A stretch of 64,000 bases of DNA from positions 64,001 through 128,000 of the forward strand of contig JAYZQJ010000033.1 in assembly GCA_036149055.1 (NCBI GenBank). The letters are read 5' to 3'. Below the pieces are notes generated by a model, which searched no databases, was not told the DNA's origin, and saw only the letters and a program-made list of their open reading frames with translations. Made by a program: the position numbers and the translations under genes. Positions 15,243 through 44,915 of this stretch are shown here, piece after piece (position 1 is the stretch's first letter; every line of letters starts with the position of its first letter). The DNA is from Myxococcota bacterium. GTDB lineage: Bacteria > Myxococcota_A > Polyangia > Polyangiales > Sandaracinaceae.

Positions 15243-15662
15243 TCAGCGCCGCTGCGCCTCGAAGAGACGGTAGGCGAGCATGCCGAGCGCCATGGTGCCG
15301 ACGAAGACGGCCGCCTCCGCGCCGAATGAGGCCAGCGACGCGATGCCCGGGCCCGGGCAGAAGCCGCCGAGGCCCCAGCCGATCCCGAACAGCGCGCTGC
15401 CGCCGAGGAGCGCCGGCGTGAGGTCCTTGCGGGTGGGCACCTCGAAGCGACCTCCGAAGACGGGGGTGCCCCGCTTCAGGATGAGGCGGAAGAGCACGAA
15501 GTGGACGCCGATCGCGCCGACCATGACGAACGCGAGGCTGGGATCCCACTGGCCGAAGAAGTCGAGGAACCCGACGACCTTGGACGGCTGGGTCATGCCC
15601 GCGATGGCGAGGCCGACGGCGAAGATCAGACCGGCGACGAACGCGGCGAGGGGCTTCTTCAC
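15243..15662 (-). CDS. YeeE/YedE family sulfur-compound transporter, second subunit
   Basis: GMTQPSKVVGFLD..WDPSLAFVM and GWGLGGFCPGP motifs. GTG start overlaps the partner's TGA. Confidence 0.9.
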   Translation of the reverse strand: MKKPLAAFVAGLIFAVGLAIAGMTQPSKVVGFLDFFGQWDPSLAFVMVGAIGVHFVLFRLILKRGTPVFGGRFEVPTRKDLTPALLGGSALFGIGWGLGGFCPGPGIASLASFGAEAAVFVGTMALGMLAYRLFEAQRR

Positions 15663-16105
15663 GACACGCCTCCGAGCAGCCGCACCGCGAGCACGGTCAG
15701 GGCGCCGGTCGCGATGAAGGTCACGGTGGCCACGATCGAGCGGCGGGAGAAGCGGCTGATGCCGCAGACCCCGTGGCCGCTGGTGCACCCGCTGCCGAGC
15801 CGCACACCGAAGCCGACGACGAGGCCGGCGACGGCGATGGTGAGCAGCGACCGGTCGTAGGTGACGGCGAAGAGCTGGGGCTGCAGCGCGAACATCACCG
15901 CGCCGCCCACCACCAGGCCGCCGACGAAGGCGGCCCGCCAGCCGAGCTCCTGCGCGTCGGCGCGGTCGGCCGGCCGGGGGAGGAGCAGGCCGGAGAAGAT
16001 GCCGCTGATGCCGGCGATGCGGCCGTTGAAGAGGAGGAGCAGCGACGCGCTGATCCCGATGAGGACGCCTCCGAGCGTGGAGGCGAGGGGGGTGAAGTGT
16101 TCCAT
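15659..16105 (-). CDS. YeeE/YedE family sulfur-compound transporter, first subunit
   Basis: GRIAGISG and GSGCTSGHGVCG motifs; about 4 TM segments. Confidence 0.92.
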   Translation of the reverse strand: MEHFTPLASTLGGVLIGISASLLLLFNGRIAGISGIFSGLLLPRPADRADAQELGWRAAFVGGLVVGGAVMFALQPQLFAVTYDRSLLTIAVAGLVVGFGVRLGSGCTSGHGVCGISRFSRRSIVATVTFIATGALTVLAVRLLGGVS

Positions 16106-16194
16106 GAGGGTGGCTCCGAGAACGGCGAACGGGCCGGGTCTTTGCTGATCTCTCGAGTCGGGATGCGCTCGACGCAACCCGTGGTCACCACACC

Positions 16195-16268
16195 ACCAGG
16201 AAGCGTACCAACGTCGGCGCGCACCGCCCACGCGAGCCTCTGCAACGCGGCGAAACGAGCGGTGCAAC
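16195..16268 (-). promoter_or_regulatory. Putative sigma54 promoter plus upstream activator motif for the YeeE pair
   Basis: Minus strand GTTGCA-N6-GTTTCG-N4-GTTGCA, then 30 bp, then TGGTACGCTTCCTGGT. The -24 box is good; -12 is the variant GG. Confidence 0.55.
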
Positions 16269-16310
16269 GGCGAGATACGGATCGCCCGGCCGACGCCCCA
16301 CGGCGAGGGC

Positions 16311-16326
16311 TGGCGCGGTTCTCGCT
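16311..16326 (+). promoter_or_regulatory. Putative sigma54 -24/-12 promoter for rhodanese-CA and porin
   Basis: TGGCGCGGTTCTCGCT = GG-N10-GC, 14 nt before the ATG. Confidence 0.45.
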
Positions 16327-16340: not shown

Positions 16341-17711
16341 ATGACCCGCTCGCTGCCCCTCGCCCTCCTGCTCGTCGCCTGCCAGGCGCCCTCCCCGGCC
16401 CCGCGCGCGTGCTCGCCGGACGGTCCCCCCGCGCGCTTCGACCGCTCGCCGGGCGGCGTGCCCGAGGTGGCTCCGTCCTGGGTGCTCGCCCACCACTGCC
16501 AGGTGCGCCTGGTCGACGTGCGTTCGGAAGAGGAGCTGACGGGCCCGCTCGGCCGCATCCCCTGGGCCAGGCACGTCCCGCTCGACCGGCTCGAGGACGA
16601 GGCGGAGGCCTGGGACCGGGACGCCCCGGTGGTCCTGGTGTGTCGCTCGGGGCGGCGGTCGGCGCGGGCCACCCGCGCGCTCGAGGACCTGGGCTTCGGC
16701 GCGGTGGCGTCGATGACCGGCGGCATGCTCGCCTGGCGCGACGGCGACCGGCCGGTGGTGCGGCACCGCGCCTCGCCCGCCCCTCCCCCGCCGGCGGAGC
16801 CGCACGCGGGGCCGCTCCGCGCGGTCGACATCGAGGCCCACCTGGGCGACCCGCGCCGGATCCGATGGGTCAAGGTCGCGGCGCTCCTGATGCAAGGCAC
16901 GCAGTCTTGCGTGGACGGACGCGATCCGAGGCCGGTGCTCGGCACGCCGGGCGGAGACGCCGGCGAGATCCTGCTCTCGCTCGCCGCGGCGGAGCGGGTG
17001 CGCGGCGCGCCCTTCCCCGCCTCGCGGGTCGGCCCCTTCCTGGACGCGTACCTCGACGCCTTCGGGCGCGTCTACGTGCACACCGACACCCACGCGCTCG
17101 AGGCGCTGGAGGCCTCGCTCCGGGACGACCCGCGCTTCGCCCCCGCGCTCGCCCGCGGCGTCGAGCGCCTGGTGCGGCGCCCGCCGCGCGCCCTCGAGGG
17201 GCCGCTGCTCGACGCGCTGACCCGCCCGGCCCACGTGGGCTGCGGCCACCTGCGCCTGATGCGCGAGCACCCGGACGAGTACGGCGTGCGCCCGGCGCTG
17301 AGCGAGGCGGTGCTGCGCGCGATCTTCGTGCGGCTCTGGCGCGGCGACGCGATCGACTTCGTGGTGCTCGAGGGCGGCCACGCCGAAGGCGCGGTGCTCG
17401 ACGTGGTGCTCGATGGGGAAGTGCACAGCTACACGCGTGTGCCGATGATCGCGCCGCACCTCGGAGACCGAGAGCTGTTCGTGCACCACCCCCAGGTCAG
17501 CGCCTGGCTGCGCGAGCAGAACGCGAGCTTCGTGTTCGAGCACGATCCCGCGCTCCGCGCCGAGCCCGGGCGCAGGGAGGCGCTCCACGCGGAGCTCGAG
17601 CGGCTCGGCGCGGCCCAGCTCCAGGCCACCCTCTCGCACCTCGCCGCGGACCTCCCGCGCTACCGAGCCCACGTCTCCGAGCGGCGGGTGTCGATCGAGG
17701 CGGCGCGATGA
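16341..17711 (+). CDS. Lipoprotein: rhodanese domain fused to a carbonic-anhydrase-like (zeta/CDCA-like) domain
   Basis: Lipobox LLVAC; rhodanese LVDVR..E, CRSGRRS and MTGGMLAW; C-terminal SCVDGR, PGG, VHTD, GCGHLRL and GGHAE. Confidence 0.8.
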   Translation: MTRSLPLALLLVACQAPSPAPRACSPDGPPARFDRSPGGVPEVAPSWVLAHHCQVRLVDVRSEEELTGPLGRIPWARHVPLDRLEDEAEAWDRDAPVVLVCRSGRRSARATRALEDLGFGAVASMTGGMLAWRDGDRPVVRHRASPAPPPPAEPHAGPLRAVDIEAHLGDPRRIRWVKVAALLMQGTQSCVDGRDPRPVLGTPGGDAGEILLSLAAAERVRGAPFPASRVGPFLDAYLDAFGRVYVHTDTHALEALEASLRDDPRFAPALARGVERLVRRPPRALEGPLLDALTRPAHVGCGHLRLMREHPDEYGVRPALSEAVLRAIFVRLWRGDAIDFVVLEGGHAEGAVLDVVLDGEVHSYTRVPMIAPHLGDRELFVHHPQVSAWLREQNASFVFEHDPALRAEPGRREALHAELERLGAAQLQATLSHLAADLPRYRAHVSERRVSIEAAR

Positions 17712-18889
17712 GGCGGCTCGCGCTGATCACGCTGCTGCTCTGGCCCGCGCCCGCGGCGGCGGACTGGCCGGACGCGATCGGCCCCTTCACGGTCGGGGAC
17801 GATGCGGCCTCGCTGCGGCTCTCGGGCATGGCGCAGCTCCAGCTCGACGTCGAGCGCCCGGGCGAGCCCGCGCTGCGGGTCCGGCGGCTGCGGCCGATCG
17901 CCCGGGCGAGCTTCGCCGGCGGCCTCCTCGGCGCGACCGCGCACCTCGAGCTCGCGCCGGGCCAGGCCGAGCTGATCGACCTCTTCGTCGAGGCGCGGCT
18001 GGATCCGGCCCTCCACCTCCGGGCCGGGCAGCTCAAGGTGCCGTACACGGTGTACCGGCAGCAGTCGCCCACCCGCCTCGCCCTCGTCGACTGGCCGGTC
18101 ACGAGCCGCTGGTTCGGGGCCGAGCGGCAGCTGGGTGTGACGGCGACGGGGGCGCTGGGCCCGGTGGGCTACGCCTTCGGCGCGTTCGCGGGCGAGAACC
18201 GACGGGCGGCGCACGCGCGCGAGCTGCCGGCCTTCTACGGCGAGGACGCGACGAACCCCTCGCGCCTGAGCGACCTGGGCGCCCCGGAGTCTCCGCACCT
18301 GGAGCTCTTCGCCCGGCTCGAGCACGCCCACCCGGACCTCGACCCGACCTCGCAGATGGACGCCCGGGGCGGCGAGCTGCGTCACCTCGTGGCGGCGAGC
18401 GTGGCCTGGGACACCGCGCCGACGGCGCGCCGCGATCTGCTGCTGCGCGTCGCGCCCGAGCTGTGGGTGCAGGCGCACGGGCTGAGCCTCACGCTCGTGG
18501 GTCACCTCGCGCTCTTCGAGGACGCGACCGGCGCGCCCCGGCCGGCGGGCATGGGCGCGCTCGCCGAGCTCGGCTGGCACGCGCACCGTCACGTGGAGCT
18601 GACGCTGCGGGTGGCCCGGGTGGACCTGACGGCCGCGCTCCGGGGAGACGCGGCCCGGCACGCCGCCCGCCTCGAGCCGCGCGACGCCGACGCGCACGCG
18701 GCCTGGGAGGCGCAGTACGGCGACGCCGGCACCCTGCGCGCGACCCAGGAGGTGGCGCTCGGCGTGAACGTGCTCGTGATCGGCCGCAGCCTCGCGTGGC
18801 GCTCCGACGTCGCGTGGCTCCGCGTCGAGCGGACCGACGGCGCCCGCGACGCGCTCCGCTTCCGCACCCAGCTCAGCCTGGCGTTCTGA
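17708..18889 (+). CDS. Porin (OprO/OprP-like anion-selective beta-barrel)
   Basis: Signal peptide, RVRRLR, LIDLFVE, LRAGQLKVPY, ERQLGV, C-terminal FRTQLSLAF. ATGA overlap with the upstream gene. Confidence 0.75.
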   Translation: MRRLALITLLLWPAPAAADWPDAIGPFTVGDDAASLRLSGMAQLQLDVERPGEPALRVRRLRPIARASFAGGLLGATAHLELAPGQAELIDLFVEARLDPALHLRAGQLKVPYTVYRQQSPTRLALVDWPVTSRWFGAERQLGVTATGALGPVGYAFGAFAGENRRAAHARELPAFYGEDATNPSRLSDLGAPESPHLELFARLEHAHPDLDPTSQMDARGGELRHLVAASVAWDTAPTARRDLLLRVAPELWVQAHGLSLTLVGHLALFEDATGAPRPAGMGALAELGWHAHRHVELTLRVARVDLTAALRGDAARHAARLEPRDADAHAAWEAQYGDAGTLRATQEVALGVNVLVIGRSLAWRSDVAWLRVERTDGARDALRFRTQLSLAF

Positions 18890-18893
18890 CCCC

Positions 18894-18966
18894 GTTCCAG
18901 GGAGCGTTCCACCCCGTTGCGGCGCGCACGTCGGGGGCGCGCGCGAGGCGCGGCACGCGGCGTGCT
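18894..18966 (+). promoter_or_regulatory. Putative sigma54 promoter plus upstream activator motif for sulP
   Basis: GTTCCA-N6-GTTCCA-N4-GTTGCG, then 29 bp, then CGGCACGCGGCGTGCT (GG-N10-GC). Confidence 0.65.
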
Positions 18967-20655: not shown

Positions 20656-25356
<4,701 letters not shown>

Positions 25357-25474: not shown

Positions 25475-26551
25475 CTAACGAGGGTATCTGGGGTAGCTGC
25501 CGAGGAGGTGGACGCGATCGCAGCGCGCCTCGAGCGCCTCGATCGCGGCCGCCACCGACGCGTCCTCGCGGTGGCCTTGCACGTCGATCACGAACACGTA
25601 GCGCCACGCGTCGCCGCGCCGCGGCCGGCTCTCGATGCGCGTCATGTTCACCCCCGCGTCCTCGATCACGCCGAGCACCCGCCGCAGCGCGCCGCGGCTC
25701 TCGTCGTCCCGGATCGCGAACGCCAGGGTGGTCTTGTCGTCGCCGGTCGGCTTCGCGTCCCGCGCGCCGATCATCACGAAGCGGGTCTCGTTCTCGGGGT
25801 GGTCCTGGATGCGCGCGGCGAGCGTCGGCAGCCCGTGGATCTCGCCGGCCAGCGCGCTCCCGATCGCGGCGCCTCCGGGATCGCGCCGCGCCTCCTGCAC
25901 CGCCGCCGCCGTCGACGCGGTCTGGACGAGCTGCGCGTGCGGCACGTTCCGGTGCAGCCAGTCGCGGCACTGAGCGAGCCCCTGCGGGTGCGAGTAGACC
26001 CGCTCCACCGCGGGCAGCGCGGCCACCCGGCCCATCAGGCAGTGCTCGATCGGGAGCACGACCTCGCGCCGGATCTGGACGCCGCCCGCGAGCAGCGCCT
26101 CGATGGCGCTGGCCACCGATCCTTCGCTCGAGTTCTCGAGCGGGACCACCCCGAACTCGGCCCGCTTCGCGCGCACCGCGTCGAACACGCCCTCGATCGT
26201 CGCCGCCTCGACGTAGCGCGGCGCGTAGCCGAAGAGGGTGCGCGCGGCGAGGTGGCTGAAGGTGCCGGCCGGGCCGAGGTAGCTGACGGTGACCGTCGAC
26301 TGGAGCGAGACGCTCGCGCTCATGATCTCGCGAAAGACCGCGACGATCGCCTCCTTCGGGAAGCGGCCCGCGCCCTTGTCGATCACGCGGCGGAGCAGCG
26401 CGTTCTCGCGCTCGGGGTCGACCGTGCCGAGGCCGCTCGCGCGCTTGGCCTCCGCGATCTCGGCCACCAGATCGGCGCGCTCGGCGAGGAGGGCGAGGAG
26501 CCGCTCGTCGACCGAGTCGATGCGCTCGCGCAGCGCCGGCAGATCAGTCAC
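25475..26551 (-). CDS. pheA: Chorismate mutase / prephenate dehydratase (P-protein)
   Basis: LRERIDSVD, YLGPAGTFS, PLENSSEG, SHPQG.AQC, NETRF and ACT-domain MTRIESRP. Confidence 0.96.
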   Translation of the reverse strand: MTDLPALRERIDSVDERLLALLAERADLVAEIAEAKRASGLGTVDPERENALLRRVIDKGAGRFPKEAIVAVFREIMSASVSLQSTVTVSYLGPAGTFSHLAARTLFGYAPRYVEAATIEGVFDAVRAKRAEFGVVPLENSSEGSVASAIEALLAGGVQIRREVVLPIEHCLMGRVAALPAVERVYSHPQGLAQCRDWLHRNVPHAQLVQTASTAAAVQEARRDPGGAAIGSALAGEIHGLPTLAARIQDHPENETRFVMIGARDAKPTGDDKTTLAFAIRDDESRGALRRVLGVIEDAGVNMTRIESRPRRGDAWRYVFVIDVQGHREDASVAAAIEALEARCDRVHLLGSYPRYPR

Positions 26552-28205
26552 GGGCGGCCTCGTGCACGCCGCGCACCGCGCGCCCGCTGGGGTCGGCGTT
26601 CTCGGCGAACGCGGCGTCCCACGCGAGCGCCGCCTCGGTGCTGCAGGCGATGGACTTGCCGCCGGGCACCTGACGCGCCGCGTCCGGGTGATCGAAGAGC
26701 TCCTCGAAGATCATGCGGTACATGTACCCCTCTTTGGTCGACGGCGGGGCATGTTCGAAGCGGGCGGCGGCCTCCGCGAGCTCGGCGTCGCTCACCCGCG
26801 CCTCGGCCTCGGCCTTCAGCCCGTCGATCCAGCCGTAGCCGACGCCGTCGGAGAACTGCTCCTTCTGTCGCCAGAGCACCGACGCCGGGAGCAGGCCCGC
26901 GCACGCCTCGCGCAGGAGCTGCTTCTCCATCTTGCCGGGGCGCACCATCTTGGCCGCCGGGTCGGTGCGCATCGCGACCTCGAGGAAGGCGACGTCGAGG
27001 AAGGGCACGCGCGCCTCGACCCCCCAGGCGGCCATCGACTTGTTCGCGCGGAGGCAATCGTACTTGTGGAGCTGCGCGAGCTTGCGGACGGTCTCCTCGT
27101 GGAACGCGCGCGGGTCGGGCGCCTTGTGGAAGTAGAGGTAGCCGCCGAAGATCTCGTCGGCGCCCTCGCCGCTGAGCACCATCTTGATGCCCATCGCCTT
27201 GATCCGGCGCGCGAGCAGGTACATCGGCGTCGAGGCGCGGATGGTGGTGACGTCGAAGGTCTCGAGGTGCCAGATCACGTCGCGCAGGGCGTCCAGTCCC
27301 TCCGCGAAGGTGTAGGTCATGCCGTGATGCACGGTCCCGATCGCGTCGGCGGCCACCTGCGCCGCCTCGAGGTCGGGAGAGCCCTCGAGGCCGATCGCGA
27401 AGCTGTGGAGCCGCGGCCACCACGCCTCCTCGCGCTCGTCCGTCTCGACGCGACGGCGCGCGTGGCGCTGGGCGAGGGCCGCCACCACCGACGAGTCCAG
27501 GCCGCCCGAGAGCAGCACGCCGTAGGGCACGTCGGTCATCAGCTGGCGAGCCACCGCGTCCTCGAGCGCGCCGCGGATGCGCTCGCGGTTGACCGGCCCC
27601 CCGTCGACCACCGCGAAGTCGCGCCAGGTCGGGCGGTAGTAGGCCCGCGCGGCGCCGGTCGCGCTGTCGAGCACGTGGCCGGGCGGCAGCTCCTCGATCG
27701 ACACGCAGTCGGGCACGAGGGCCTTCATCTCCGAGGCGACGCGCAGCCGGCCCTCCCGGTCGCGGCCCGTGTAGAGCGGGATGACCCCGATGGGGTCGCG
27801 CGCGATCACGTAGCGGTCGCTGGGCTCGTCGTAGAGCACGAAGGCGAAGATGCCGTCGAGCTGGTGCACGAAGTCGGCGCCCTTGGCGCGGTAGAGCGCG
27901 AGGATCACCTCGCAGTCGGACTGCGTCCTCCAGGGGTAGGCGGCGTGGGCCTCCCGCACCGCGCGGTGCCCGTAGATCTCTCCGTTGACCGCGAGCACCG
28001 TCCCGCCGGGACCGAGGAGCGGTTGGCCTCCGCTGGCCGGGTCGACGATGGCCAATCGCTCGTGGGCGAGGATCGCCGATCCGCCGGCCCAGACGCCGCT
28101 CCAGTCCGGCCCCCGGTGCCTCATCGTCTTGCTCCGCTCGAGCGCCTCTGCGCGGAGCGTGGCCGGGTCGCCCCGGACCTCGAGCACGGCATAGATGGAG
28201 CACAT
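26544..28205 (-). CDS. asnB: Asparagine synthetase B (glutamine-hydrolysing)
   Basis: N-terminal MC, RHRGPDWSG, NGEIY, LLSGGLDSS, SGEGADEIFGGYLYF; strong SD. Confidence 0.97.
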   Translation of the reverse strand: MCSIYAVLEVRGDPATLRAEALERSKTMRHRGPDWSGVWAGGSAILAHERLAIVDPASGGQPLLGPGGTVLAVNGEIYGHRAVREAHAAYPWRTQSDCEVILALYRAKGADFVHQLDGIFAFVLYDEPSDRYVIARDPIGVIPLYTGRDREGRLRVASEMKALVPDCVSIEELPPGHVLDSATGAARAYYRPTWRDFAVVDGGPVNRERIRGALEDAVARQLMTDVPYGVLLSGGLDSSVVAALAQRHARRRVETDEREEAWWPRLHSFAIGLEGSPDLEAAQVAADAIGTVHHGMTYTFAEGLDALRDVIWHLETFDVTTIRASTPMYLLARRIKAMGIKMVLSGEGADEIFGGYLYFHKAPDPRAFHEETVRKLAQLHKYDCLRANKSMAAWGVEARVPFLDVAFLEVAMRTDPAAKMVRPGKMEKQLLREACAGLLPASVLWRQKEQFSDGVGYGWIDGLKAEAEARVSDAELAEAAARFEHAPPSTKEGYMYRMIFEELFDHPDAARQVPGGKSIACSTEAALAWDAAFAENADPSGRAVRGVHEAARD

Positions 28206-28220
28206 TTCCTTTCCTCCCGT

Positions 28221-28302
28221 GTCGGGGAACGCCCCACGACGCAGCGCGTCAGAGACGCCCTTCAGAGTGAGAGGACTCACTGGTACTCCTGACGCGCCGC
28301 GT
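28221..28302 (-). promoter_or_regulatory. Structured 5' region of asnB (candidate cis-regulatory RNA)
   Basis: 14-bp inverted repeat (28239-28252 / 28289-28302) enclosing AGUA...AGUGAG-uccu-CUCACU...GAA. A competing hairpin at 28221-28240 lies near the SD. Confidence 0.4.
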
Positions 28303-28360
28303 TGTCCAGACGCCCGAAACGTCCTGATTTGCGGGCCCTACGAAAATCGGCCGGGTGGCC

Positions 28361-28389
28361 TTGACACGCCGCGTCGTAGCGATCATCGT
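28361..28389 (+). promoter_or_regulatory. Putative sigma70 promoter of the ilv-leu operon
   Basis: TTGACA-N17-CATCGT; GTG follows 7 nt later. Confidence 0.6.
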
Positions 28390-28396
28390 CCTCGCC

Positions 28397-28591
28397 GTGA
28401 CGCAGCTCACGTCCCAGCCCACCGCTCAGACCGCGACCGCTTCGGCGGCCAGCGCGAGCGATCGCGGCACCGACGTGCTCCCGACCGACGCCCTCCTCCG
28501 GGGTGTCGGCCGCCTCTCCGTCGTCCTCGTACTCGTCGTCCTCCTCGCCCTCGTCGTCCTCATTACGGGCGGTGGGGCGCTCCTCGGATAG
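28397..28591 (+). CDS. ilv-leu attenuator leader peptide (64 aa if started at GTG 28397)
   Basis: Contains LSVVLVLVVLLALVVLIT with the rare codons GTA and ATT; stops just before the terminator of a branched-chain amino acid operon. Confidence 0.8.
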   Translation: MTQLTSQPTAQTATASAASASDRGTDVLPTDALLRGVGRLSVVLVLVVLLALVVLITGGGALLG

Positions 28592-28613
28592 TCGACACGA
28601 CTTTCTTCGATGT

Positions 28614-28655
28614 GAGCCCCCGCCGCCGAGAGGCAGCGGGGGCTCTTCGCGTTTC
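28614..28655 (+). terminator. Attenuator terminator hairpin
   Basis: GAGCCCCCGC-cGCC-gaga-GGCa-GCGGGGGCTC then TTCGCGTTTC. The 5' arm can pair instead with GGCGGTGGGGCGCTC (28568-28582). Confidence 0.8.
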
Positions 28656-30470: not shown

Positions 30471-32160
30471 GATCACGGGCGCGCGCGCGCTCTGGGAGGC
30501 GCTGGTCGCCGAGGGCGTCGACGTCGTCTTCGGCTACCCGGGGGGCGCCATCATGCCCACCTACGACGCGCTGCCGGGCTACCCGATCCGGCACGTGCTC
30601 TGCCGCCACGAGCAGAACGCCGCGCACATGGCCGACGGCTACGCGCGGGCCTCCGGGCGGGTCGGCGTCGCCATCGCGACCTCGGGCCCCGGGGCCACCA
30701 ACCTCGTGACCGGCATCGCCACCGCGATGCTCGACTCGAGCCCCATCGTCTGCATCACCGGGCAGGTCCCCTCGACCCTGATCGGCAGCGACGCGTTCCA
30801 GGAGACCGACATCACCGGGGTCACGCTCCCGATCACCAAGCACAACTACCTGGTCACCCGCGCGGAGGACGTCGCGCCGATCCTGCGCGAGGCCTTCTAC
30901 GTCGCCCGGAGCGGCCGGCCGGGCCCGGTGGTGGTCGACATCACCAAGGACGCGCAGCTCGGCCTCTGCCGCCCGGACCACGGCGCGCCGGTGCGGCTGC
31001 CCGGCTACCGGCCGCGGCGACGGGTGGAGGCGGCCGAGCTCGACGAGGCGGCGCGGCTCATCGACGCGGCCGAGCGGCCGCTCGTGTTCTGCGGGCACGG
31101 CGTGGTGAAGGCCGAGGCGACCGCGCTGCTGCGGGAGCTGGTCGACAAGGGCGACCTCCCGGTGGCCTGCACCCTGCTCGGGCTCGGCGGCTTCCCGGCG
31201 AGCGATCCGCGGCACCTCGGCATGATGGGCATGCACGGCGAGGCGTGGGTCAACGAGGCGGTGCAGCGCGCGGACCTGCTCGTCGCGCTCGGCATGCGCT
31301 TCGACGACCGGGTGACCGGCAACCTCGCCAGCTACGCCCGCGGCGCGAAGAAGATCCACGTCGAGCTCGATCCGGCCGAGGTCGGCAAGAACGTCGCGTG
31401 CGACGTCGCGATCGTCGGCGACGTGAAGGACGCCCTGCGCGGGCTGGTGCCCCGGATCGCGTGGCGGCGCCGCGAGGGCTGGCGCGCGGAGATCGCCGCG
31501 CTGCGCGAGGACGCCGAGGCCCACGACGTCCAGCGCCTCCCGGACGACGGCCGGCTGCTCGCCGCCCACGTGATGGCGGACCTGCACCGGCTGACCGGGG
31601 GCGAGGCCCTCGTGGTGACCGACGTGGGCCAGCACCAGATGTGGGAGGCGCAGTACTACCGCCACGAGGCGCCCCGCAGCCTGATCACCTCGGGCGGGCT
31701 CGGCACGATGGGGTTCGCGCTCCCGGCGGCGATCGGGGCGCGGTTCGCGCGGCCCGGCGACGAGATCTGGGTGATCGCGGGCGACGGCGGCTTCCAGATG
31801 AGCGCGGCCGAGCTCTCGACCTGCATGCAGGAGGGCGTGCAGGTGAACGTGGCCATCATCAACAACGGCTACCTCGGCATGGTCCGGCAGTGGCAGGACC
31901 TCTTCTACGAGAAGCGCTACGTGGCGACGCCGATCGTCAGCCCCGACTTCGTGAAGCTCGCCGAGGCCCACGGCCTGAGCGCGCGGCGGGTCACGCGGCG
32001 GGACGAGATCGAGGACGCGGTGGGCTTCGCCCGCATGCAGCGACGGACCTGCGTGATCGAGTTCCAGGTCGCGCAGGAGGACACCGTCTACCCGATGGTT
32101 CCGGCGGGGAACGACCTCGCCGACATGATCCGCAGGCCGCGGATGAAGGGAGTCAGCTGA
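30457..32160 (+). CDS. ilvB: Acetolactate synthase large subunit
   Basis: FGYPGGA, RHEQ, TSGPGATN, GMRFDDRVTG, DVGQHQMW, GDGGFQM...NNGYLGMVRQWQ. Confidence 0.97.
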   Translation: MMTAEITGARALWEALVAEGVDVVFGYPGGAIMPTYDALPGYPIRHVLCRHEQNAAHMADGYARASGRVGVAIATSGPGATNLVTGIATAMLDSSPIVCITGQVPSTLIGSDAFQETDITGVTLPITKHNYLVTRAEDVAPILREAFYVARSGRPGPVVVDITKDAQLGLCRPDHGAPVRLPGYRPRRRVEAAELDEAARLIDAAERPLVFCGHGVVKAEATALLRELVDKGDLPVACTLLGLGGFPASDPRHLGMMGMHGEAWVNEAVQRADLLVALGMRFDDRVTGNLASYARGAKKIHVELDPAEVGKNVACDVAIVGDVKDALRGLVPRIAWRRREGWRAEIAALREDAEAHDVQRLPDDGRLLAAHVMADLHRLTGGEALVVTDVGQHQMWEAQYYRHEAPRSLITSGGLGTMGFALPAAIGARFARPGDEIWVIAGDGGFQMSAAELSTCMQEGVQVNVAIINNGYLGMVRQWQDLFYEKRYVATPIVSPDFVKLAEAHGLSARRVTRRDEIEDAVGFARMQRRTCVIEFQVAQEDTVYPMVPAGNDLADMIRRPRMKGVS

Positions 32161-32161
32161 G

Positions 32162-32707
32162 ATGACCGAGCTCCGGACCTTCGCCGTCCTCGTCGAGGAC
32201 GTCCCGGGGGTGCTCAACCGCGTCGCGTCGCTCTTCCGGCGCCGCAACTTCAACATCGTCTCGCTCAACGTCGGCCGGACCCACGAGCGGGGGATCTCTC
32301 GCATGACGGTCGTGGTCGAGGCCGACGCGCGCACCGCGCGGCTGGTGGAGGCCAACCTCTACAAGCTGGTGAACGTGCTCGCGGTCGAGGACATCTCCGA
32401 GCGCGCCACCGTCACCCGCGACCTCGCGCTCATCCGGGTGTCCGCCGGGGCCGAGGAGCGCGCGGCCATCCTGCAGATCTGCGAGGTGTTCCGCGCGCGG
32501 GTCGTCGACGTCGCGCCCAGCTCGCTCGTCGTCGAGATCACCGGCGCCCAGGACAAGATCGAGGGGCTGGCGAAGCTGCTCGAGCCCTTCGGCATCACCG
32601 AGATGGTCCAGACCGGCGCCATCGCCCTGACCCGCGGCGCCGACACCGGCGCGACCGCGCTGCACCGACTCGCCACCGAAGACGCCGCCGCCGATCGCGC
32701 GGCCTGA
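32162..32707 (+). CDS. ilvN: Acetolactate synthase small (regulatory) subunit
   Basis: ACT domain VEDVPGVLNRVASLFRRRNFNI; operon position. Confidence 0.96.
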   Translation: MTELRTFAVLVEDVPGVLNRVASLFRRRNFNIVSLNVGRTHERGISRMTVVVEADARTARLVEANLYKLVNVLAVEDISERATVTRDLALIRVSAGAEERAAILQICEVFRARVVDVAPSSLVVEITGAQDKIEGLAKLLEPFGITEMVQTGAIALTRGADTGATALHRLATEDAAADRAA

Positions 32708-35304
<2,597 letters not shown>

Positions 35305-35306
35305 CG

Positions 35307-36683
35307 ATGAAGACCCTCTTCGACAAGGTGTGGGACGCCCACGCGGTGCACGAGGCGCCGCATCACCCGAGCGTGCTCTACGTGGATCTCCACCTGGTGC
35401 ACGAGGTCACCTCGCCGCAGGCCTTCAGCGGCCTCGAGACGCGCGGGCTCCCGGTGCGGCGGCCCGAGCGGACGCTGGCCACCATGGATCACTCGACGCC
35501 GACCCGGCCGGGAGGCCTCGCGGTGGTCGACGACGCGGGGCGCGCGCAGCTCGAGACGCTGGCCCGGCGCTGCGCCGAGCACGGCATCGAGCTGTTCGAT
35601 CTGAGCTCGCCGCACAACGGGATCGTGCACGTGGTCGCGCCCGAGCAGGGGCGCACGCACCCGGGCATGACGGTGGTGTGCGGCGACAGCCACACCTCGA
35701 CCCACGGCGCGTTCGGGGCGCTCGCCTTCGGCATCGGGACCAGCGAGGTCGAGCAGGTGCTCGCGACCCAGTGCCTGCTCGCCTGGCGGCCGCTCCCCTA
35801 CGAGGTGCGCTTCGAGGGCACCGCGCCCGAGGGGGTGAGCGCGAAGGATCTGATCCTGGCGCTGATCGCCGAGATCGGGGTCGGCGGCGGCACCGGTCAC
35901 GTCTTCGAGTACCGGGGCGACGCGGTGCGCGCGCTCTCGATGGAGGGCCGCATGACGCTCTGCAACATGTCGATCGAGGCCGGCGCCCGGGCCGGCATGG
36001 TCGCGCCCGACGACACCACCTTCGCCTACCTCGCCGGGAGACCGGGGGCGCCGGCCGACTTCGACGGGGCGGTCGCGCGGTGGCGGGCGCTCCGGACCGA
36101 CGACGGCGCCTACTTCGCCCGGACGGTGAGCCTCGACGCCTCGCGGGTGTCGCCGCGGATCACCTGGGGCACCACGCCGGCGATGAGCGTGGGCGTCGAC
36201 GAGCCGGTCCCGCAGCCGACCGACGCCGCCGCTCGCTCGGCGCTCGACTACATGCGCCTCGAGGCGGGCAAGCCGCTGCTCGGTCAGCCGATCGACGTGG
36301 CCTTCATCGGCTCCTGCACCAACTCGCGCCTCGAGGATCTGCGCGAGGCGGCGAGGGTGCTCCGCGGGCGCCGGGTCGCGGCGCGCACGCTGGTGGTGCC
36401 CGGCTCCCGAGCGGTGAAGAGGGAGGCCGAGGCGGAGGGCCTGGACCGGATCTTCGAGGCGGCGGGCGCGGAGTGGCGCGAGCCGGGCTGCTCGATGTGC
36501 CTGGCGATGAACGGCGACCGGCTCGAGCCGGGGCAGCTCTCGGTCAGCACGTCGAATCGCAACTTCGAGGGCCGGCAGGGGCCGGGGGGTCGCACCCTGC
36601 TCGCCTCTCCGCTCACCGCGGCCGCGAGCGCGGTGGCCGGCGCGGTCGCCGACGCGCGGCGCACGCTCTCGGAGGCGGCGTGA
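35307..36683 (+). CDS. leuC: 3-isopropylmalate dehydratase large subunit
   Basis: [48 protein letters not shown]. Confidence 0.97.
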
Positions 36684-37249
36684 CCCCCTTCGACACGCTC
36701 ACCTCCCGGGTCGCGCCGCTCCTCCGCGACGACGTCGACACCGACCAGATCATCCCGGCGCGCTACCTCAAGGTCGTCGATCGCTCCGGGCTCGCCGAGG
36801 GGCTCTTCGCCGGCTGGAAGTCCGATCCCTCGTTCCCGCTGCACGAGCCGGCGACCGAAGACGCGCGCGTCCTTCTCACCGGCGCGAACTTCGGCTGCGG
36901 CTCCTCCCGGGAGCACGCGCCGTGGGCCCTGATCGCCGCCGGCTTCCGGTGCGTGATCGCGCGCTCGTTCGCGGACATCTTTCGCGGCAACGCGCTCCGG
37001 AACGGGCTGCTGACGGTGGCGCTCGACGAGGCGGATCACGCGCGGCTGGTCGCCGACGTCTCGGCGGATCCGTGGCGGGTGGTGACGGTCGCGCTCGAGC
37101 CGCAGCGCGTCCGGTGGGGCGCGGCCGAGGCTGCGTTCTCGCTCGATCCCTTCTCGAAGACCTGCCTGCTCGAGGGGCTCGACCCGCTCGGCTACCTGCT
37201 CGCCCACGACGCGGCGATCGACGCCTACGAGCGGAGGGAGGCGCCGTGA
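36680..37249 (+). CDS. leuD: 3-isopropylmalate dehydratase small subunit
   Basis: [34 protein letters not shown]. Confidence 0.97.
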
Positions 37250-38850
37250 CCGAGCCCGCGGTGAAGCTCTACGACACCACCCTCCGCGACGGCACGCAGC
37301 GGGAGGGTCTCAGCCTGTCGGTGGGGGAGAAGCTCCGGATCCTCACCCTGCTCGACCGGCTCGGCGTCGCCTACGTCGAGGGCGGCTGGCCGGGCTCGAA
37401 CCCGAAGGACGCCGAGCTCTTCGCGCGGGCCCGGGCGCTGCCGCTCCGGCACGCGAGGCTCGCCGCGTTCGGCGCCACCCGCCGGCGGGATCTGCGGGCC
37501 GAGGACGATCCGAGCCTGCGCGCGCTGCTCGAGGCGGAGACGCCGGTGTGCACGATCTTCGGCAAGAGCTCGATCGCGCACGTGCGGGAGGTGCTCCGGG
37601 TCACGCCGGACGAGAACCTCGCGATGATCGAGGAGAGCTGCGCCCTGCTCCGCGCGGCCGGGCGCGAGGTGGTCTACGACGCCGAGCACTTCTTCGACGG
37701 CTGGGCGCTCGACCCGCGCTACGCCCTGGCCACCCTCGTGGCCGCGGCCCGCGGCGGCGCGAGCACGATCGTGCTCTGCGACACCAACGGCGGCAGCTTC
37801 CCGTGGGACGTGGAGGAGGCGACGCGCGAGGTGGTGCGCCTCGTCGGCACCCCGGTCGGGATCCACGCCCACGACGACACCGGGTGCGCGGTCGCCAACA
37901 GCCTCGCCGCGGTCCGGGCCGGCGCGCGCCACGTGCAAGGCACCATGCACGGCTGGGGGGAGCGCTGCGGCAACGCGAGCCTCTGCACCCTCGCGCCGGC
38001 CCTCGAGCTCGCGCTCGGGCTCCCGGCCCTGCCGGACGGAGCGCTCCGCACGCTCACCTCGATCGCGGCGCAGATCGGCGGCGTGGCCGGCCTCGAGGGC
38101 GACCCGCACGCGCCCTACGTCGGCCGGAGCGCCTTCGCGCACAAGGGCGGGGTGCACGTCGCCGCGACCCGGCGCTGGGCCGAGGCCTACCAGCACGTCA
38201 TGCCCGAGCTCGTCGGCAACCGGACCCGGGTGGTCGTGAGCGAGCTGAGCGGCCGGAGCAACGTGCTCTCCTTCGCCGAGGAGCGCGGGGTGGCGGTCGA
38301 GGAGTCGGTGGCGCGCGAGGTGCTGGCCGAGATCGAGCGCGAGGAGGCGGAGGGCTACAGCTTCGATCGCGCCGAGGGCTCGGTCGCGCTCCGGCTCGAG
38401 CGGCGGGCGCCGTCCTACCGCGCGCCCTTCGAGGTGGAGCGCTACCGGGTGCAGCTCGGGCGCGGCAAGGGGGAGCGCCCCTACGCCGAGGTGACGGTGT
38501 GGACGCGGATCGGCGACCGGGTGCTGCACACCGCGGGCGCGGGCCGGGGGCCGGTGGAGGCCTTCGACCGGGCGCTCCGCGAGGCCCTCGCGCCGTCCTA
38601 TCCCGAGATCGCGCGCATCCGCCTGACCGACTTCGCGGTGCGCATCCTCGACGGCGCGGCGGGCACGTCGGCCACGACGCGGGTGTGGATCGAGCATCGC
38701 CTCCAGGGCCCGAGCGCGACCGAGCAGGCCTGGGGTACGGTGGGGGCGTCGGACAACGTCATCGAGGCCGCGCGGCGCGCCCTGGTGGACGGTCTCGAGT
38801 ACGGGCTGTCGCTCGAAAGGAACGAACATGATCGTGCTGTTGCCGGGTGA
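37246..38850 (+). CDS. cimA: Citramalate synthase (LeuA paralogue)
   Basis: YDTTLRDGTQRE, EGGWPGSNPKD, DAEHFFDG, CDTNGG, FAHKGGVH, VSELSGRSN. Confidence 0.9.
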   Translation: MTEPAVKLYDTTLRDGTQREGLSLSVGEKLRILTLLDRLGVAYVEGGWPGSNPKDAELFARARALPLRHARLAAFGATRRRDLRAEDDPSLRALLEAETPVCTIFGKSSIAHVREVLRVTPDENLAMIEESCALLRAAGREVVYDAEHFFDGWALDPRYALATLVAAARGGASTIVLCDTNGGSFPWDVEEATREVVRLVGTPVGIHAHDDTGCAVANSLAAVRAGARHVQGTMHGWGERCGNASLCTLAPALELALGLPALPDGALRTLTSIAAQIGGVAGLEGDPHAPYVGRSAFAHKGGVHVAATRRWAEAYQHVMPELVGNRTRVVVSELSGRSNVLSFAEERGVAVEESVAREVLAEIEREEAEGYSFDRAEGSVALRLERRAPSYRAPFEVERYRVQLGRGKGERPYAEVTVWTRIGDRVLHTAGAGRGPVEAFDRALREALAPSYPEIARIRLTDFAVRILDGAAGTSATTRVWIEHRLQGPSATEQAWGTVGASDNVIEAARRALVDGLEYGLSLERNEHDRAVAG

Positions 38851-39865
38851 CGGAATCGGTCCGGAGGTGGTGCGCGAGGCGCGCCGGGTGCTCGAGGCGG
38901 TGGCGCCCGACCTCCGCTACGAGAACGCGCGGATCGGGGGCGAGGCGATCGACGCCTCCGGGACGGCCCTTCCGGACGAGACGCTCGACGCGTGCCGCGA
39001 GGCGGACGCGGTGCTGCTCGGCGCGGTCGGCGGCCCGAAGTGGGACGACCCGCGGGCCCGCGTCCGCCCGGAGCAGGGCCTGCTCGGGCTGCGCAAGGCG
39101 CTCGGGGTCTACGCGAACCTGCGCCCGGTGCGGGTGCCCGAGGCGATCGCGGATCGCTCGCCGCTCAAGCGCGAGAAGGTGCTCGGCGTCGACTTCGTGG
39201 TCGTGCGCGAGCTGACCGGGGGCCTCTACTTCGGCGAGCCTCGCCGCCGCGAGCGGACCGATCTCGGCGAGCGGGCCATCGACACCCTCGAGTACACCGA
39301 CGCCGAGATCGCGCGGGTGATGAAGGTGGCGTTCGAGCTCGCCGCGACGCGACGCGAGAAGGTCACCAGCGTCGACAAGGCGAACGTGCTCGAGAGCTCG
39401 CGGCTCTGGCGGGAGACGGCCGAGAAGGTGGCCGCGGGCTACGCCTCGATCGCGCTCTCGCATCAGCTCGTCGACTCGATGGCGATGCGCCTCCTGACCC
39501 ACGCCGCCGACCTCGACGTGGTGGTCACCGAGAACCTCTTCGGCGACATCCTCACCGACGAGGCGGCCGCCCTGACCGGGTCGCTGGGCGTCTTGCCCAG
39601 CGCGTCGGTGGGCGACGGCCGCCGCGGCATCTACGAGCCGATCCACGGCTCCGCGCCGGACATCGCCGGCCGCGGGGTCGCCAACCCGATCGGCGCGATC
39701 CTCAGCGCGGCGATGATGCTGCGCTGGTCCCTCGAGCGCGCCGACGCCGCCGACGCCATCGAGCGCGCGGTCGACGCCGCCCTCACCCGAGGCGCCCGCA
39801 CCGCCGATCTCGGCGGACACCTCGCCACCTCCAAGATGACCGAGCGGATCCTCTCCGAGCTCTGA
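38828..39865 (+). CDS. leuB: 3-isopropylmalate dehydrogenase
   Basis: GDGIGPEV, GAVGGPKWD, VRELTGGLYFG, VDKANVL, NLFGDIL, EPIHGSAPDIAG. Confidence 0.97.
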   Translation: MIVLLPGDGIGPEVVREARRVLEAVAPDLRYENARIGGEAIDASGTALPDETLDACREADAVLLGAVGGPKWDDPRARVRPEQGLLGLRKALGVYANLRPVRVPEAIADRSPLKREKVLGVDFVVVRELTGGLYFGEPRRRERTDLGERAIDTLEYTDAEIARVMKVAFELAATRREKVTSVDKANVLESSRLWRETAEKVAAGYASIALSHQLVDSMAMRLLTHAADLDVVVTENLFGDILTDEAAALTGSLGVLPSASVGDGRRGIYEPIHGSAPDIAGRGVANPIGAILSAAMMLRWSLERADAADAIERAVDAALTRGARTADLGGHLATSKMTERILSEL

Positions 39866-42449: not shown

Positions 42450-43450
42450 CCGAGCGCGTTCCAGCGGGTCATGCCGCCCGCCATCGAGACGACGCGGGTG
42501 AAGCCGGCCTCGGCGAGGCGCTCCGCGGCGCGGGCCGAGCGGCCGCCGCTCCGGCAGAAGACCACCACCGTGCGCTCGTCGGGCGCGCCGAGCGCGGCGG
42601 GCAGCGTGGCGAGCGGGTGGTGCTCGGCCCCGGGCATCGCGCCGAGGGGGCCCCGGAGCTCGTCCGCCTCGCGCACGTCCACCAGGCGCAGCCCCTCGGC
42701 GTGCTCGCGCACCCACTCCTCGCTCACCTCGACCACGCCCTCGGGCGGCTGCTCGATCCCGCAGCGGAGGTTGGCGGGGACGGCGACGTGGATCTGCTTG
42801 GGCTGCGCCAGGTCGAGGTTCTCCATGATCTCCACGAACGCCGCGCGGCCGATGTCCTCGCGGAGGCGCCGGTTGAGCCGCTTCTCCTCGCCGACGGTGC
42901 TCGAGGTGAAGCCGCGGTAGTCGTGCCCCGGGTAGATCGGCGTCTCGTCGGGGAGCGAGAAGATCCGGCGGTGCACCGAGTCGTAGAGGCGCTCGGCGTC
43001 CCCCTGCTGGAAGTCGGTGCGGCCGCAGCCGCGGATCAGCATCGTGTCGCCGGTGAAGGCGGCGAGCGGCCGGCCCCCCTCGCGCACGACGTAGGTCACG
43101 TCGCCGTCGGTGTGCCCGGGCGTGTGGCGCGCCTCGATCTCGAGGCGACCGAGCCGCAGCACCTCGCCGTCCTCGACCAGCCGGTCGGGGCAGCCCGCTC
43201 CCGCGGCCGCGCTGAGCACGGTCTCGGCGCCGAGGCGCTCGCGGAGGAGCCCGCTCGCGGTCACGTGGTCGGCGTGCACGTGGGTCTCGAGGGCGTAGAC
43301 GAGGGTGAGATCGAGCTCGGCGAGGAGCTCGACGTCGCGCTCGACCTGCTCGCGGACGGCGTCGATGAGCGCCGCCTCGCGCGTCTCCTCGTCGGCGACG
43401 AGGTAGGTGTAGGTGCTGGACGCGTGGTCGAAGAGCTGTCGGAAGAGCAT
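42398..43450 (-). CDS. Persulfide dioxygenase (ETHE1-like MBL fold) fused to rhodanese
   Basis: FRQLFD..SSTYTYL, ETHVHADHVT, TPGHT, GCGRTDFQQG, PGHDY, AVPANLRCG; C-terminal rhodanese CRSGGRS. Confidence 0.93.
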   Translation of the reverse strand: MLFRQLFDHASSTYTYLVADEETREAALIDAVREQVERDVELLAELDLTLVYALETHVHADHVTASGLLRERLGAETVLSAAAGAGCPDRLVEDGEVLRLGRLEIEARHTPGHTDGDVTYVVREGGRPLAAFTGDTMLIRGCGRTDFQQGDAERLYDSVHRRIFSLPDETPIYPGHDYRGFTSSTVGEEKRLNRRLREDIGRAAFVEIMENLDLAQPKQIHVAVPANLRCGIEQPPEGVVEVSEEWVREHAEGLRLVDVREADELRGPLGAMPGAEHHPLATLPAALGAPDERTVVVFCRSGGRSARAAERLAEAGFTRVVSMAGGMTRWNALGYPAIGGGAARSPAECG

Positions 43451-43475
43451 GGCGTCTCCTTTCGACGAGGGGAAG

Positions 43476-43549
43476 TGCACGCGCCGCGCCACCCGGGCCG
43501 GGCGAGCCCGCGGGGACCGGGTGAAACGGGTTGAAACACCGCGCGGACC
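43476..43549 (-). promoter_or_regulatory. Putative sigma54 promoter plus upstream activator motif for persulfide dioxygenase
   Basis: Minus strand GGTCCG-N6-GTTTCA-N4-GTTTCA, then 30 bp, then TGGCGCGGCGCGTGCA (GG-N10-GC). Confidence 0.7.
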
Positions 43550-43574
43550 CGGTCGGCGTGCGTATGATGCGGGC

Positions 43575-44915
43575 GTGCCCGACCCCGTCCCTCATCTCCG
43601 CGCCGCCCTCCGCGAGGTCGTGGGGGCCGCCCTGGTCCTCGACGCGCAGCTCCGGATCGTCGCCTTCACCGACGAGGCGGTGGGCGTGCTCGACGTCACC
43701 CCGGAGCTCGGCGTCCCCGCGCCCAAGCTCCTCTGCGGGCACGGCGAGCAGCGCCCGCTCGCCGAGGCGCTCGCCCAGGGCCAGGCGGTCACCGCCGAGA
43801 TCCTCCGGCCGACGAAGGACGGCGCCCACCGCAGCGTGAGGGTGCGCGCGAGCCCGATCGCGGTCGGCGACGGTCAGGGCTTCCTGCTGCTGCTCGACGA
43901 CGACCTGTGGCAGGCCGAGCGCGCCGACGCGCCGATCGAGAGCTGGGGCATCGTCACCCGCGACGCCGGCATGAAGCAGCTCCTCCGCGACGTGCGCAAG
44001 GTGGCCGGCTCGAGCGCGAGCGTGCTCGTCCGGGGCGAGACCGGCAGCGGCAAGGAGCTGATCGCGCGCGCGATCCACCTCGCCTCGGCGCGCGCCGCCG
44101 GGCCCGTCCGCGCCATCAACTGCGCGGCGCTCCCGGCGAGCATCCTCGAGAGCGAGCTGTTCGGGCACGCGCGCGGCGCGTTCACCGGCGCGGTCCGGGA
44201 CGCGCCCGGGCACTTCAAGCTCGCCGACGGAGGCACCCTCTTCCTCGACGAGGTGGCGGAGCTTCCTCTCGAAGTGCAAGCGAAGCTGCTGCGCGTGCTC
44301 CAGGACAAGACCGTGATCCCGGTGGGCGGCGCCGACCCGGTCCCGGTCGACGTGCGCATCGTCTCGGCGACCCACCGGGCGCTGCGGCGCGAGGTCGAGG
44401 AGGGGCGGTTCCGCGCCGACCTGCTCTACCGCCTGCGCGTGATCCCGCTCTTCCTCCCCACGCTCCGGCAGCGGCCGGCCGACGTGGAGCTGCTCGCCTG
44501 GCACTTCCTCGAGCAGCGCGCCGCCGAGGAGGGAGGCCGCGCCATCCAGCGCATCACGCCGGGCGCGCTCGCCGCGCTGACCGACTACGACTGGCCGGGC
44601 AACGTGCGCGAGCTGCAGAACGTGATCGAGTACGCGACCGTCATGGGCGAGGGCCCGGTGCTCGCCGAGAGCGACCTGCCCCCCGAGGTGCGCGGCGAGG
44701 AGCGAGGCCCGCGGGTGACCCGCCCCGATCCCGGGCTGACCGCGCTCCGGGCCGAGCTGCCGCCGGAGGCGCGCCGCTACCTGACCGCGCTCGAGCGCTC
44801 CGGCGGGCACATGGGGCGCGCCGCGCAGTCCCTCGGCATCAGCCGCACCACGCTGTGGCGCAAGCTCAAGAAGCACGGCCTCGACCGGGACACCCTCGAG
44901 GCGGGGGAGGACTGA
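43575..44915 (+). CDS. Sigma54-dependent enhancer-binding protein (PAS-like, AAA+, Fis HTH)
   Basis: GETGSGKE, ESELFGH..GAFTGA, LFLDEV, WPGNVRELQN, LGISRTTLWRK. TATGAT ends 6 nt before the GTG (possibly leaderless). Confidence 0.95.
   Translation: MPDPVPHLRAALREVVGAALVLDAQLRIVAFTDEAVGVLDVTPELGVPAPKLLCGHGEQRPLAEALAQGQAVTAEILRPTKDGAHRSVRVRASPIAVGDGQGFLLLLDDDLWQAERADAPIESWGIVTRDAGMKQLLRDVRKVAGSSASVLVRGETGSGKELIARAIHLASARAAGPVRAINCAALPASILESELFGHARGAFTGAVRDAPGHFKLADGGTLFLDEVAELPLEVQAKLLRVLQDKTVIPVGGADPVPVDVRIVSATHRALRREVEEGRFRADLLYRLRVIPLFLPTLRQRPADVELLAWHFLEQRAAEEGGRAIQRITPGALAALTDYDWPGNVRELQNVIEYATVMGEGPVLAESDLPPEVRGEERGPRVTRPDPGLTALRAELPPEARRYLTALERSGGHMGRAAQSLGISRTTLWRKLKKHGLDRDTLEAGED

Follow-up and report, generated by a model that had tools for sequence, protein, structure and literature searches.

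A probable sigma54 regulon of sulfur genes, with phased direct-repeat sites and a divergent FisR-family activator, in a genome of the Sandaracinaceae

Do three look-alike upstream regions, the outermost 27 kb apart, belong to a single regulon, and which protein would read them? The question arises from a stretch of 64,000 nucleotides, hereafter the window (G000:C33:64001-128000; GC content 74.5%), in the 9.9 Mb genome (9,885,391 bases, 96% complete, code G000) of a myxobacterium of the family Sandaracinaceae. In this window, genes for a YeeE/YedE sulfur transporter (yeeE), a SulP permease (sulP) and a persulfide dioxygenase (pdo) each lie behind an array of GTTNCR-like hexamers and a sigma54-type -24/-12 box, and a gene for a sigma54 activator diverges from pdo. 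An original prediction held that a triple-hexamer motif bound by this activator controls six genes as a sulfane-sulfur system. Comparisons among sequences indicate that the window carries a conserved group of sulfur genes with sigma54-type promoters, most likely switched on by the FisR-family activator that diverges from pdo, with sulfane sulfur as the likely signal. The predicted arrays and four boxes were all located in the sequence at the expected positions (Table 1), and the arrays read as described, but the yeeE box has TGG and not TGC at -14 to -12, and the distance of 27 kb applies only to yeeE and pdo, sulP and pdo being 24.6 kb apart. The GG-N10-GC element is present at sulP, pdo and the fourth box, and yeeE has GG-N10-GG instead.

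The pattern G[GT]TNCR-N6-GTTNCR-N4-GTTNCR had three matches in the whole genome, namely the three arrays of the window, and 99 other spacing pairs of the same pattern gave 8 matches in total, so that the motif, whose frequency at random places the prediction had proposed to check, is unique to these three places in its triple form. Since this pattern was built from the window sites, matrices trained on other genomes provide a fairer test. Trained on 27 sites located ahead of sulfur-type genes elsewhere (G000, G001 and G023 excluded), they ranked the window sites first to third in the genome (scores 29.3 to 37.2, the next being 21.3), a test that is only partly independent, as the 27 sites had been found by the window-derived pattern and ambiguous gaps, with two boxes, were picked by eye. 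The next-ranked site (C186:21940), considered as a further member, was rejected, having no good -12 element and no clear gene downstream. In the relatives' sites, the third hexamer was present at N6 in just 4 of 27 (14 nucleotides examined), and the conserved unit is therefore not the triple, as had been claimed, but the doublet GTT(T/G/C)CR-N4-GTT(T/G/C)CR, with the third hexamer optional. The N4 doublet alone had 8 matches in this genome, reduced to the same three sites once a -24 element was required downstream. The first pdo hexamer, GGTCCG, is two letters off the commonest form, and the G at -13 was present in 27 of 27 boxes, though the search pattern did not require it. A degenerate palindrome as the unit was ruled out at the three window sites, where every half-site faces one way; inverted half-site pairs are present near activator genes in relatives.

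Table 1. Genes and predicted regulatory elements of the proposed regulon (positions in the window)
Feature	Position	Strand	Evidence or remark
YeeE/YedE partner (DUF6691), 139 amino acids	15243..15662	-	Pfam PF20398, E 1.5e-42
YeeE/YedE family sulfur transporter, 148 amino acids	15659..16105	-	Pfam PF04143, E 2.9e-11
yeeE sigma54-type -24/-12 box	16196-16210	-	-12 element TGG, non-consensus; predicted +1 16184
Operator array 1 (predicted), GTTGCA-N6-GTTTCG-N4-GTTGCA	16241-16268	-	30 bp ahead of yeeE box; matrix score 32.6, genome rank 2
Fourth sigma54-type box, facing rhodanese-carbonic anhydrase gene	16311..16326	+	42 bp from oppositely oriented array 1; predicted +1 16337
Rhodanese (Cys101) fused to zeta-carbonic-anhydrase-fold domain, lipoprotein-like N-terminus	16341..17711	+	Rhodanese, Pfam PF00581
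Likely outer-membrane porin, OprO/P-like (weak)	17708..18889	+	Porin_O_P below cut-off
Operator array 2 (predicted), GTTCCA-N6-GTTCCA-N4-GTTGCG	18894-18921	+	29 bp ahead of sulP box; matrix score 29.3, genome rank 3
sulP sigma54-type box	18951-18965	+	Predicted +1 18977, 3 nucleotides ahead of ATG
SulP anion permease with STAS domain, 595 amino acids	18980..20767	+	TIGR00815, 526.5 bits (cut-off 380.45)
Persulfide dioxygenase-rhodanese fusion (PRF type; pdo), 350 amino acids	42398..43450	-	Top PDB match BpPRF, E 3.5e-94, residues 1-334
pdo sigma54-type box	43477-43491	-	Predicted +1 43465, just ahead of ribosome-binding site
Operator array 3 (predicted), GGTCCG-N6-GTTTCA-N4-GTTTCA	43522-43549	-	30 bp ahead of pdo box; matrix score 37.2, genome rank 1
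TATGAT, likely -10 element of near-leaderless activator promoter	43563..43568	+	
FisR-family sigma54 activator, 446 amino acids	43575..44915	+	PAS-like sensor with Cys54, AAA+ domain with GAFTGA, Fis-type helix-turn-helix (GISRTTLWR)

The sensor domain of the activator was matched in 24 of 31 genomes of the family and in 86 of 201 genomes of the order, G000 included. Among 32 orthologue loci, three of which had been fetched because of a motif match, 25 contained the doublet, with 43 copies in 510 kb (8.4 per 100 kb), whereas seven alternative spacings in the same loci gave 0.56 per 100 kb. Other sigma54 activators had the doublet in 8 of 75 loci (0.62 per 100 kb), and none of six sulfur loci had it in genomes where the activator was not found. 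In other families, 40 loci chosen by the activator alone (40 of the activator places found in an order-wide search, two being contigs already seen) included 31 with a sulfur gene and 20 with the doublet, at a density of 4.3 versus 0.74 per 100 kb for other spacings. The clustering of motif and sulfur genes with the activator in other genomes, which the prediction had put forward as a check, was thus borne out. The genes behind the doublet sites include pdo, a second pdo, sulP, yeeE, tauE and genes for rhodaneses and thioredoxin, and doublets in relatives often lie at the ends of the activator's own gene. One genome, G023 (unpublished data), contributed 1 of the 32 loci, 1 of 22 orthologues and 3 of the 97 gap matches given below (none at 29-31 bp), and none of our conclusions rests on it.

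A stretch of about 10 kb in G017, and likewise in G014, takes in the genes for the activator, a second persulfide dioxygenase, SulP, the porin and the YeeE/YedE pair, most units being preceded by doublets. In G001, a member of the genus to which G000 belongs, the layout is split, and a fourth site lies ahead of a second pdo. Since the clusters are contiguous in G017 and G014 and split in G001 and G000, the split is likely a secondary rearrangement seen in this genus. The second PRF gene of G000 (contig C57) has no doublet. Between the two halves of the regulon, the window encodes a CheB-CheR-PAS kinase of 1566 amino acids (20656-25356), followed by amino-acid biosynthesis genes (25475-39865; ilv, leu and others, assigned by inspection of their translations).

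With the first base of the box counted as -26, the window doublets occupy positions from roughly -57 to -72, the third hexamer extending to -84. Sigma54 enhancers are reported to lie usually 80-150 bp upstream (PMC4987338), those of Clostridiales 100-250 bp upstream (PMC6615313) and those of Desulfovibrio mostly within 100 nucleotides (PMC4641369), which places the window sites at the short end of enhancer distances, not outside the range. The closeness that the original prediction had called unusual (29-30 bp) is real, yet the phasing is more telling. Among 97 doublet-plus-box matches outside G000 (gaps of 24-54 bp allowed), 26 had a gap of 29-30 bp, 8 of 39 bp, and a looser group fell at 49-53 bp; where a good box followed the doublet in other families (15 cases), the gaps were 28, 29, 29, 30, 39, 39, 40, 41, 41, 50, 52, 54, 55, 74 and 87 bp. 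The gaps thus form clusters at 29-31, 39-41 and 49-55 bp, each step of roughly 10 bp being close to one helical turn, which suggests that it matters on which side of the helix a site lies. In each of 30 promoters the predicted +1 precedes the start codon, being, by eye, within 6 nucleotides of the start in 10, shortly ahead of the ribosome-binding site in 14 and at the head of a longer leader in 6. The natural spacings of 29, 39 and 50 bp would make a ready series for studying the minimum enhancer-sigma54 distance.

The activator has the hallmarks of a sigma54 enhancer-binding protein (PF00158, E 9.9e-66; PF02954, E 1.8e-11; GAFTGA present), rpoN is encoded in the genome with a score over the cut-off, and the nearest named records to the activator come from Sandaracinaceae and related metagenome-assembled genomes. 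For comparison, a locus of Acinetobacter baumannii (L239) was taken as a FisR system by its gene order, fisR-pdo-sqr-tauE, as given in PMC7315123. The activator shares 50% identity with this FisR across the AAA+ and helix-turn-helix domains, and is the best match of A. baumannii FisR among 68 here (282 versus 254 bits). The recognition helix GISRTTLWR/SRTTLWR, common to A. baumannii FisR, occurs in only 1 of the 64 activators of the genome. In a quick tree (one FisR, composition flagged, G023 excluded, with paralogues of this genome and PrpR as the outgroup), A. baumannii FisR was sister to 21 orthologues with a Shimodaira-Hasegawa-like approximate likelihood ratio support of 98. FisR had accordingly been the right comparison, and the activator is probably a FisR-family member by descent of its AAA+ and helix-turn-helix domains. 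Because PrpR, with nearly the same helix, has a published site of the same half-site (the enhancer CGTTTCATGAAACG of Escherichia coli/Salmonella; PMC4987338), a GTTTCA-type half-site would fit the recognition helix of the activator.

Based on these data, we propose that a near-leaderless sigma70-type promoter would supply the activator in small amounts. Array 3 partly covers this predicted promoter, extending into its -35 region. In 15 of 22 orthologues, TAnnnT is located 5-8 nucleotides ahead of an in-frame activator start, and in many of them half-sites lie just upstream of, or over, the first codons, suggesting autorepression. Persulfide would likely modify Cys54 of the PAS-like domain, an assignment based on a weak PAS_4 match (E 0.00085), thereby freeing the AAA+ domain; this cysteine is present in 21 of 22 orthologues and in 40 of 40 further ones, and the sensor domain had no match among the plasmid sequences searched. 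GTTKCA half-sites, spaced 10 bp from one another along a single face of the helix, would be contacted by the helix-turn-helix domains. In the window, the sites stop near -57 (in relatives one or two turns farther out), and the DNA around them is rich in GC and contains no IHF-like match; for this reason, the oligomer would have a short bend to span in reaching sigma54. As sulfane sulfur builds up, yeeE-yedE, sulP, pdo and probably the rhodanese-carbonic anhydrase and porin genes would be switched on. Judging from their families, the porin, the periplasmic rhodanese and YeeE/YedE may bring in the sulfur of thiosulfate or polysulfide, the dioxygenase-rhodanese fusion may convert it to sulfite by way of glutathione persulfide, and an oxyanion may be carried by SulP.

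Several observations weigh against this proposal. The strict doublet is missing from 7 of the 32 and 20 of the 40 activator loci, several of which have looser half-site clusters; 14 of 29 doublets in other-family loci have no good box behind them; and related genomes are not independent samples. At the promoters, the -12 element of yeeE is non-consensus, likewise ahead of yeeE in G001, G014, G010 and G002, and the GGAGG ahead of sulP sits upstream of the predicted +1. Ten RNA runs were found, four of which were compared with the sequence, and all consist of contigs of patchy coverage. Near-variants of the recognition helix occur in three paralogues of the genome. The orthologue in G013 is without the cysteine, and the sensor profile did not match A. 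baumannii FisR, whose regulatory domain has no cysteine. Finally, doublets with boxes occur where the activator was not found: four matches at gaps of 29-31 bp in G008 (89% complete), one of them ahead of a rhodanese gene, and one each in G040 (ahead of a FixG-type gene) and G030. Other activators may thus read the same half-site.

Since the sensor domain does not match that of A. baumannii FisR, we infer the inducer from gene content only, and the activator might bind the sites in response to a signal other than sulfane sulfur, such as sulfur supply (thiosulfate as a nutrient), redox, or carbonyl sulfide (COS), carbon disulfide (CS2) or CO2 via the zeta-carbonic anhydrase and SulP. Neither the SQR-like gene (one query) nor tauE from relatives had a match in this 96% complete genome, and for lack of an SQR match the genes are more in keeping with the handling of thiosulfate or persulfide than with the oxidation of sulfide. 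In addition, BpPRF is reported to move sulfur from thiosulfate to glutathione and on to sulfite (PMC9163753), and zeta-carbonic anhydrase to hydrolyse CS2 to H2S via COS (PMC8217695). We nevertheless consider such a signal unlikely: the targets in relatives (pdo, tauE, yeeE, rhodaneses and, in some relatives, an SQR-like gene) are the usual set of persulfide sensors as listed in PMC13467558, the single conserved cysteine suits persulfide chemistry, both characterised FisRs answer sulfide according to PMC7315123, and thiosulfate might exert its effect by way of persulfides, in which case this alternative would coincide with sensing of sulfane sulfur. In G001 and G005, the SQR-like gene is close to that of the activator; Pfam gives only Pyr_redox_2 for it, and its name is presumed from context.

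Alternatively, the motif and the regulon could be real but another protein, be it a sigma54 activator with a similar helix, a direct-repeat repressor or a co-activator, could bind the repeats. Direct repeats of 10 bp are typical of winged-helix regulators, the sites in G008, G030 and G040 would call for such a protein, and E. coli PrpR, outside the clade, has the same helix and half-site, which is thus not private to the activator. However, the doublets track the activator across families, often at the ends of its gene, and were absent from the six sulfur loci lacking it; it is the only activator of the genome with the exact helix; and G008 is an incomplete genome from a genus of which two genomes have the activator. 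Another binder therefore appears quite improbable. A chance likeness picked out after the fact in GC-rich DNA, although the pattern was built on these very sites, loose sigma54-like boxes are common (17 matches in the window) and the doublet has 5 other matches in the genome, is largely refuted, to the point of being negligible, by the roughly 6- to 15-fold excess of the doublet over other spacings in activator-picked loci, the phased gaps and the sulfur genes downstream in many genomes.

Control of all six genes by the activator, as originally claimed, is backed for the regulon as such by the 25 of 32 loci, the phasing and the FisR grouping, and is less sure for the rhodanese-carbonic anhydrase and porin genes. 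The fourth box, which had been proposed to drive this pair from the yeeE site, is conserved: a TGGCGCG-N4-TTG box precedes the rhodanese-carbonic anhydrase orthologue in G001, G005 and G017, and a weaker one in G014. Control of the pair from array 1, which faces the other way at a distance of 42 bp, is less certain. The orthologue in G017 has its own forward doublet with a gap of 39 bp, and more distant homologues (about 43% identity) are mostly without box and motif. We consider it reasonably likely that the pair is under the control of array 1.

The C-terminal domain of the rhodanese-carbonic anhydrase (16809-17711) belongs to a bacterial family of at least 510 proteins (P0022-P0140 among them), in which it stands alone or fused to rhodanese, and had no match in Pfam, PDB or Atlas by sequence searches. 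Its structural model (mean predicted local distance difference test score, pLDDT, 95.7) matched only CDCA1, the zeta-carbonic anhydrase of Thalassiosira weissflogii, among 48,161 chains (3uk8; Z 11.6, root-mean-square deviation 3.3, 179 aligned residues; next Z 4.3), and the top five Foldseek rows were likewise CDCA1 (E 0.03-0.07). An alignment of 120 homologues shows no variation at Cys190, Asp192, Arg194, His247, Cys301 and Gly302, and the reported counterparts in CDCA1 are Cys473, Asp475, His525, Cys535 and Gly536 (PMC8217695), a correspondence drawn by motif and not from superposed residues. The modelled domain thus has the zeta-carbonic-anhydrase fold with a predicted Cys-His-Cys metal site and an Asp/Arg pair. 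It shares with CDCA1 the fold, the ligand set Cys-x-Asp, His and Cys-Gly, and the Asp/Arg pair, and differs in its 17% identity, in about 44 extra residues between the His and the second Cys, and in being bacterial and fused to rhodanese. CDCA1 is described as also hydrolysing CS2, slowly, to H2S via COS (PMC8217695), and the predicted role here may concern CO2, together with SulP, or COS/CS2. PMC13098186 describes the zeta class as one believed to occur largely in diatoms and protozoa; the regulon points to a bacterial family with this fold in a sulfur setting, which may deserve its own study.

Most of the original gene labels were upheld by Pfam, TIGR00815 and BpPRF, with the C-terminal rhodanese active-cysteine loop of the pdo product, CRSGGRS, aligning with that of BpPRF; the carbonic anhydrase label is without a sequence match and was supported by fold. 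Support for the porin label is weak, as the Porin_O_P matches (E 0.018 in the window protein and 0.0035-0.21 in four of four orthologues tested) all stay under the cut-off, and the gene adjoins that of the rhodanese-carbonic anhydrase or sulP in G001, G005, G014 and G017. A tandem two-domain short-chain dehydrogenase/reductase gene (44917-46578) begins 1 base past the activator stop codon, where G001 has genes for DUF1641 and the SQR-like protein, and is possibly a replacement in this lineage. At the other end, the window contains an open reading frame of 3173 amino acids (370-9891), TPR-rich by eye.

Other loci showed variations of their own. In G019 and G003 (L144, L145), doublets flank the activator gene, no pdo or yeeE is present there, and SpoIIAA-like and OsmC-like genes come next. 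The clusters L146, L148, L158 and L196 include TsdA/SoxA-type cytochrome c genes, and L146 also SoxB-like genes of the 5'-nucleotidase family, hinting at thiosulfate oxidation in some relatives. In G008, a doublet and a good box (L160:4497-4740, on C48) precede a gene for a 48-residue peptide with 6 cysteines, unmatched in G000. G025, which lacks the activator, has five identical 53-base pattern matches on C13, C20, C26 and C37, probably representing a repeated element.

Comparison with known systems places these sites in a wider setting. As in the window, A. baumannii has a sigma54 activator divergent from pdo, the helix GISRTTLWR and GTTTCA half-sites in the spacer, two of them in direct repeat; its fisR-pdo spacer (L239:3425-3620), with four GTTTCA/TGAAAC half-sites and an IHF-like match, is a candidate FisR operator. 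However, those half-sites mix direct and inverted orientations and end 93 bp from the box in a spacer of 79% AT, whereas the window promoters have gaps of 29-30 bp and 24-31% AT, with no IHF-like match in any of the three. Moreover, yeeE-yedE-pdo2 of A. baumannii is under BigR, whereas yeeE here is under the same motif as pdo, and A. baumannii has sqr, which was not found in this genome. The BigR/SqrR clusters yeeE-yedE-pdo(-sulP-tauE) share the same gene kit (an ArsR-type gene was present in 4 of 5 plasmid loci examined), but pair a repressor with sigma70 instead of an activator with sigma54.

Direct repeats, which the original prediction had pointed out, are already known for such activators and are not new in kind. 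Nla28 of Myxococcus xanthus, also a myxobacterial sigma54 activator, is reported on tandem direct repeats (PMC9765219), although its 8 bp sequence is different, its spacers very variable and its targets developmental, whereas N4 and the phasing are fixed here. Similarly, E. coli PrpR shares the recognition helix GISRTT(F/L)WR and the GTTTCA/TGAAAC half-site, and differs in its signal, targets and position outside the clade, and in an array that is reversed and ends 75 bp from the box. In the prpR-prpB spacer (L178:1988-2045), four TGAAAC are spaced N4, N6 and N6, the reverse complement of the layout of the window arrays.

Our literature search, whose reach excluded Li 2017 (which may already define a FisR site), found no description of such a site or of a myxobacterial FisR. 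FisR of Cupriavidus pinatubonensis, set side by side by description only, is likewise a sigma54 activator, of sulfide-oxidation genes, and senses via three regulatory-domain cysteines (PMC7315123, PMC12754779), as compared with the one conserved in the present family; the same papers describe the three as not generally conserved among FisRs, and PMC7315123 states as open how FisRs without them sense sulfur. For such FisRs, this branch offers one conserved cysteine as a candidate sensor. As read from sequence, the system differs from known FisR systems in its other sensor domain with that single cysteine, its close phased sites in GC-rich DNA, the lack of an SQR match and the rhodanese-zeta-carbonic anhydrase fusion. 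A broader picture is doubtful, though conceivable: a FisR branch spread through the order, with tandem half-sites on one face at whole helical turns, IHF-free sigma54 activation, persulfide sensing by a single PAS cysteine, and a cell-surface zeta-carbonic anhydrase-rhodanese capturing the sulfur of COS/CS2 as sulfane. Taken beside these systems, the doublet provides a concrete candidate operator for the FisR class of persulfide sensors.

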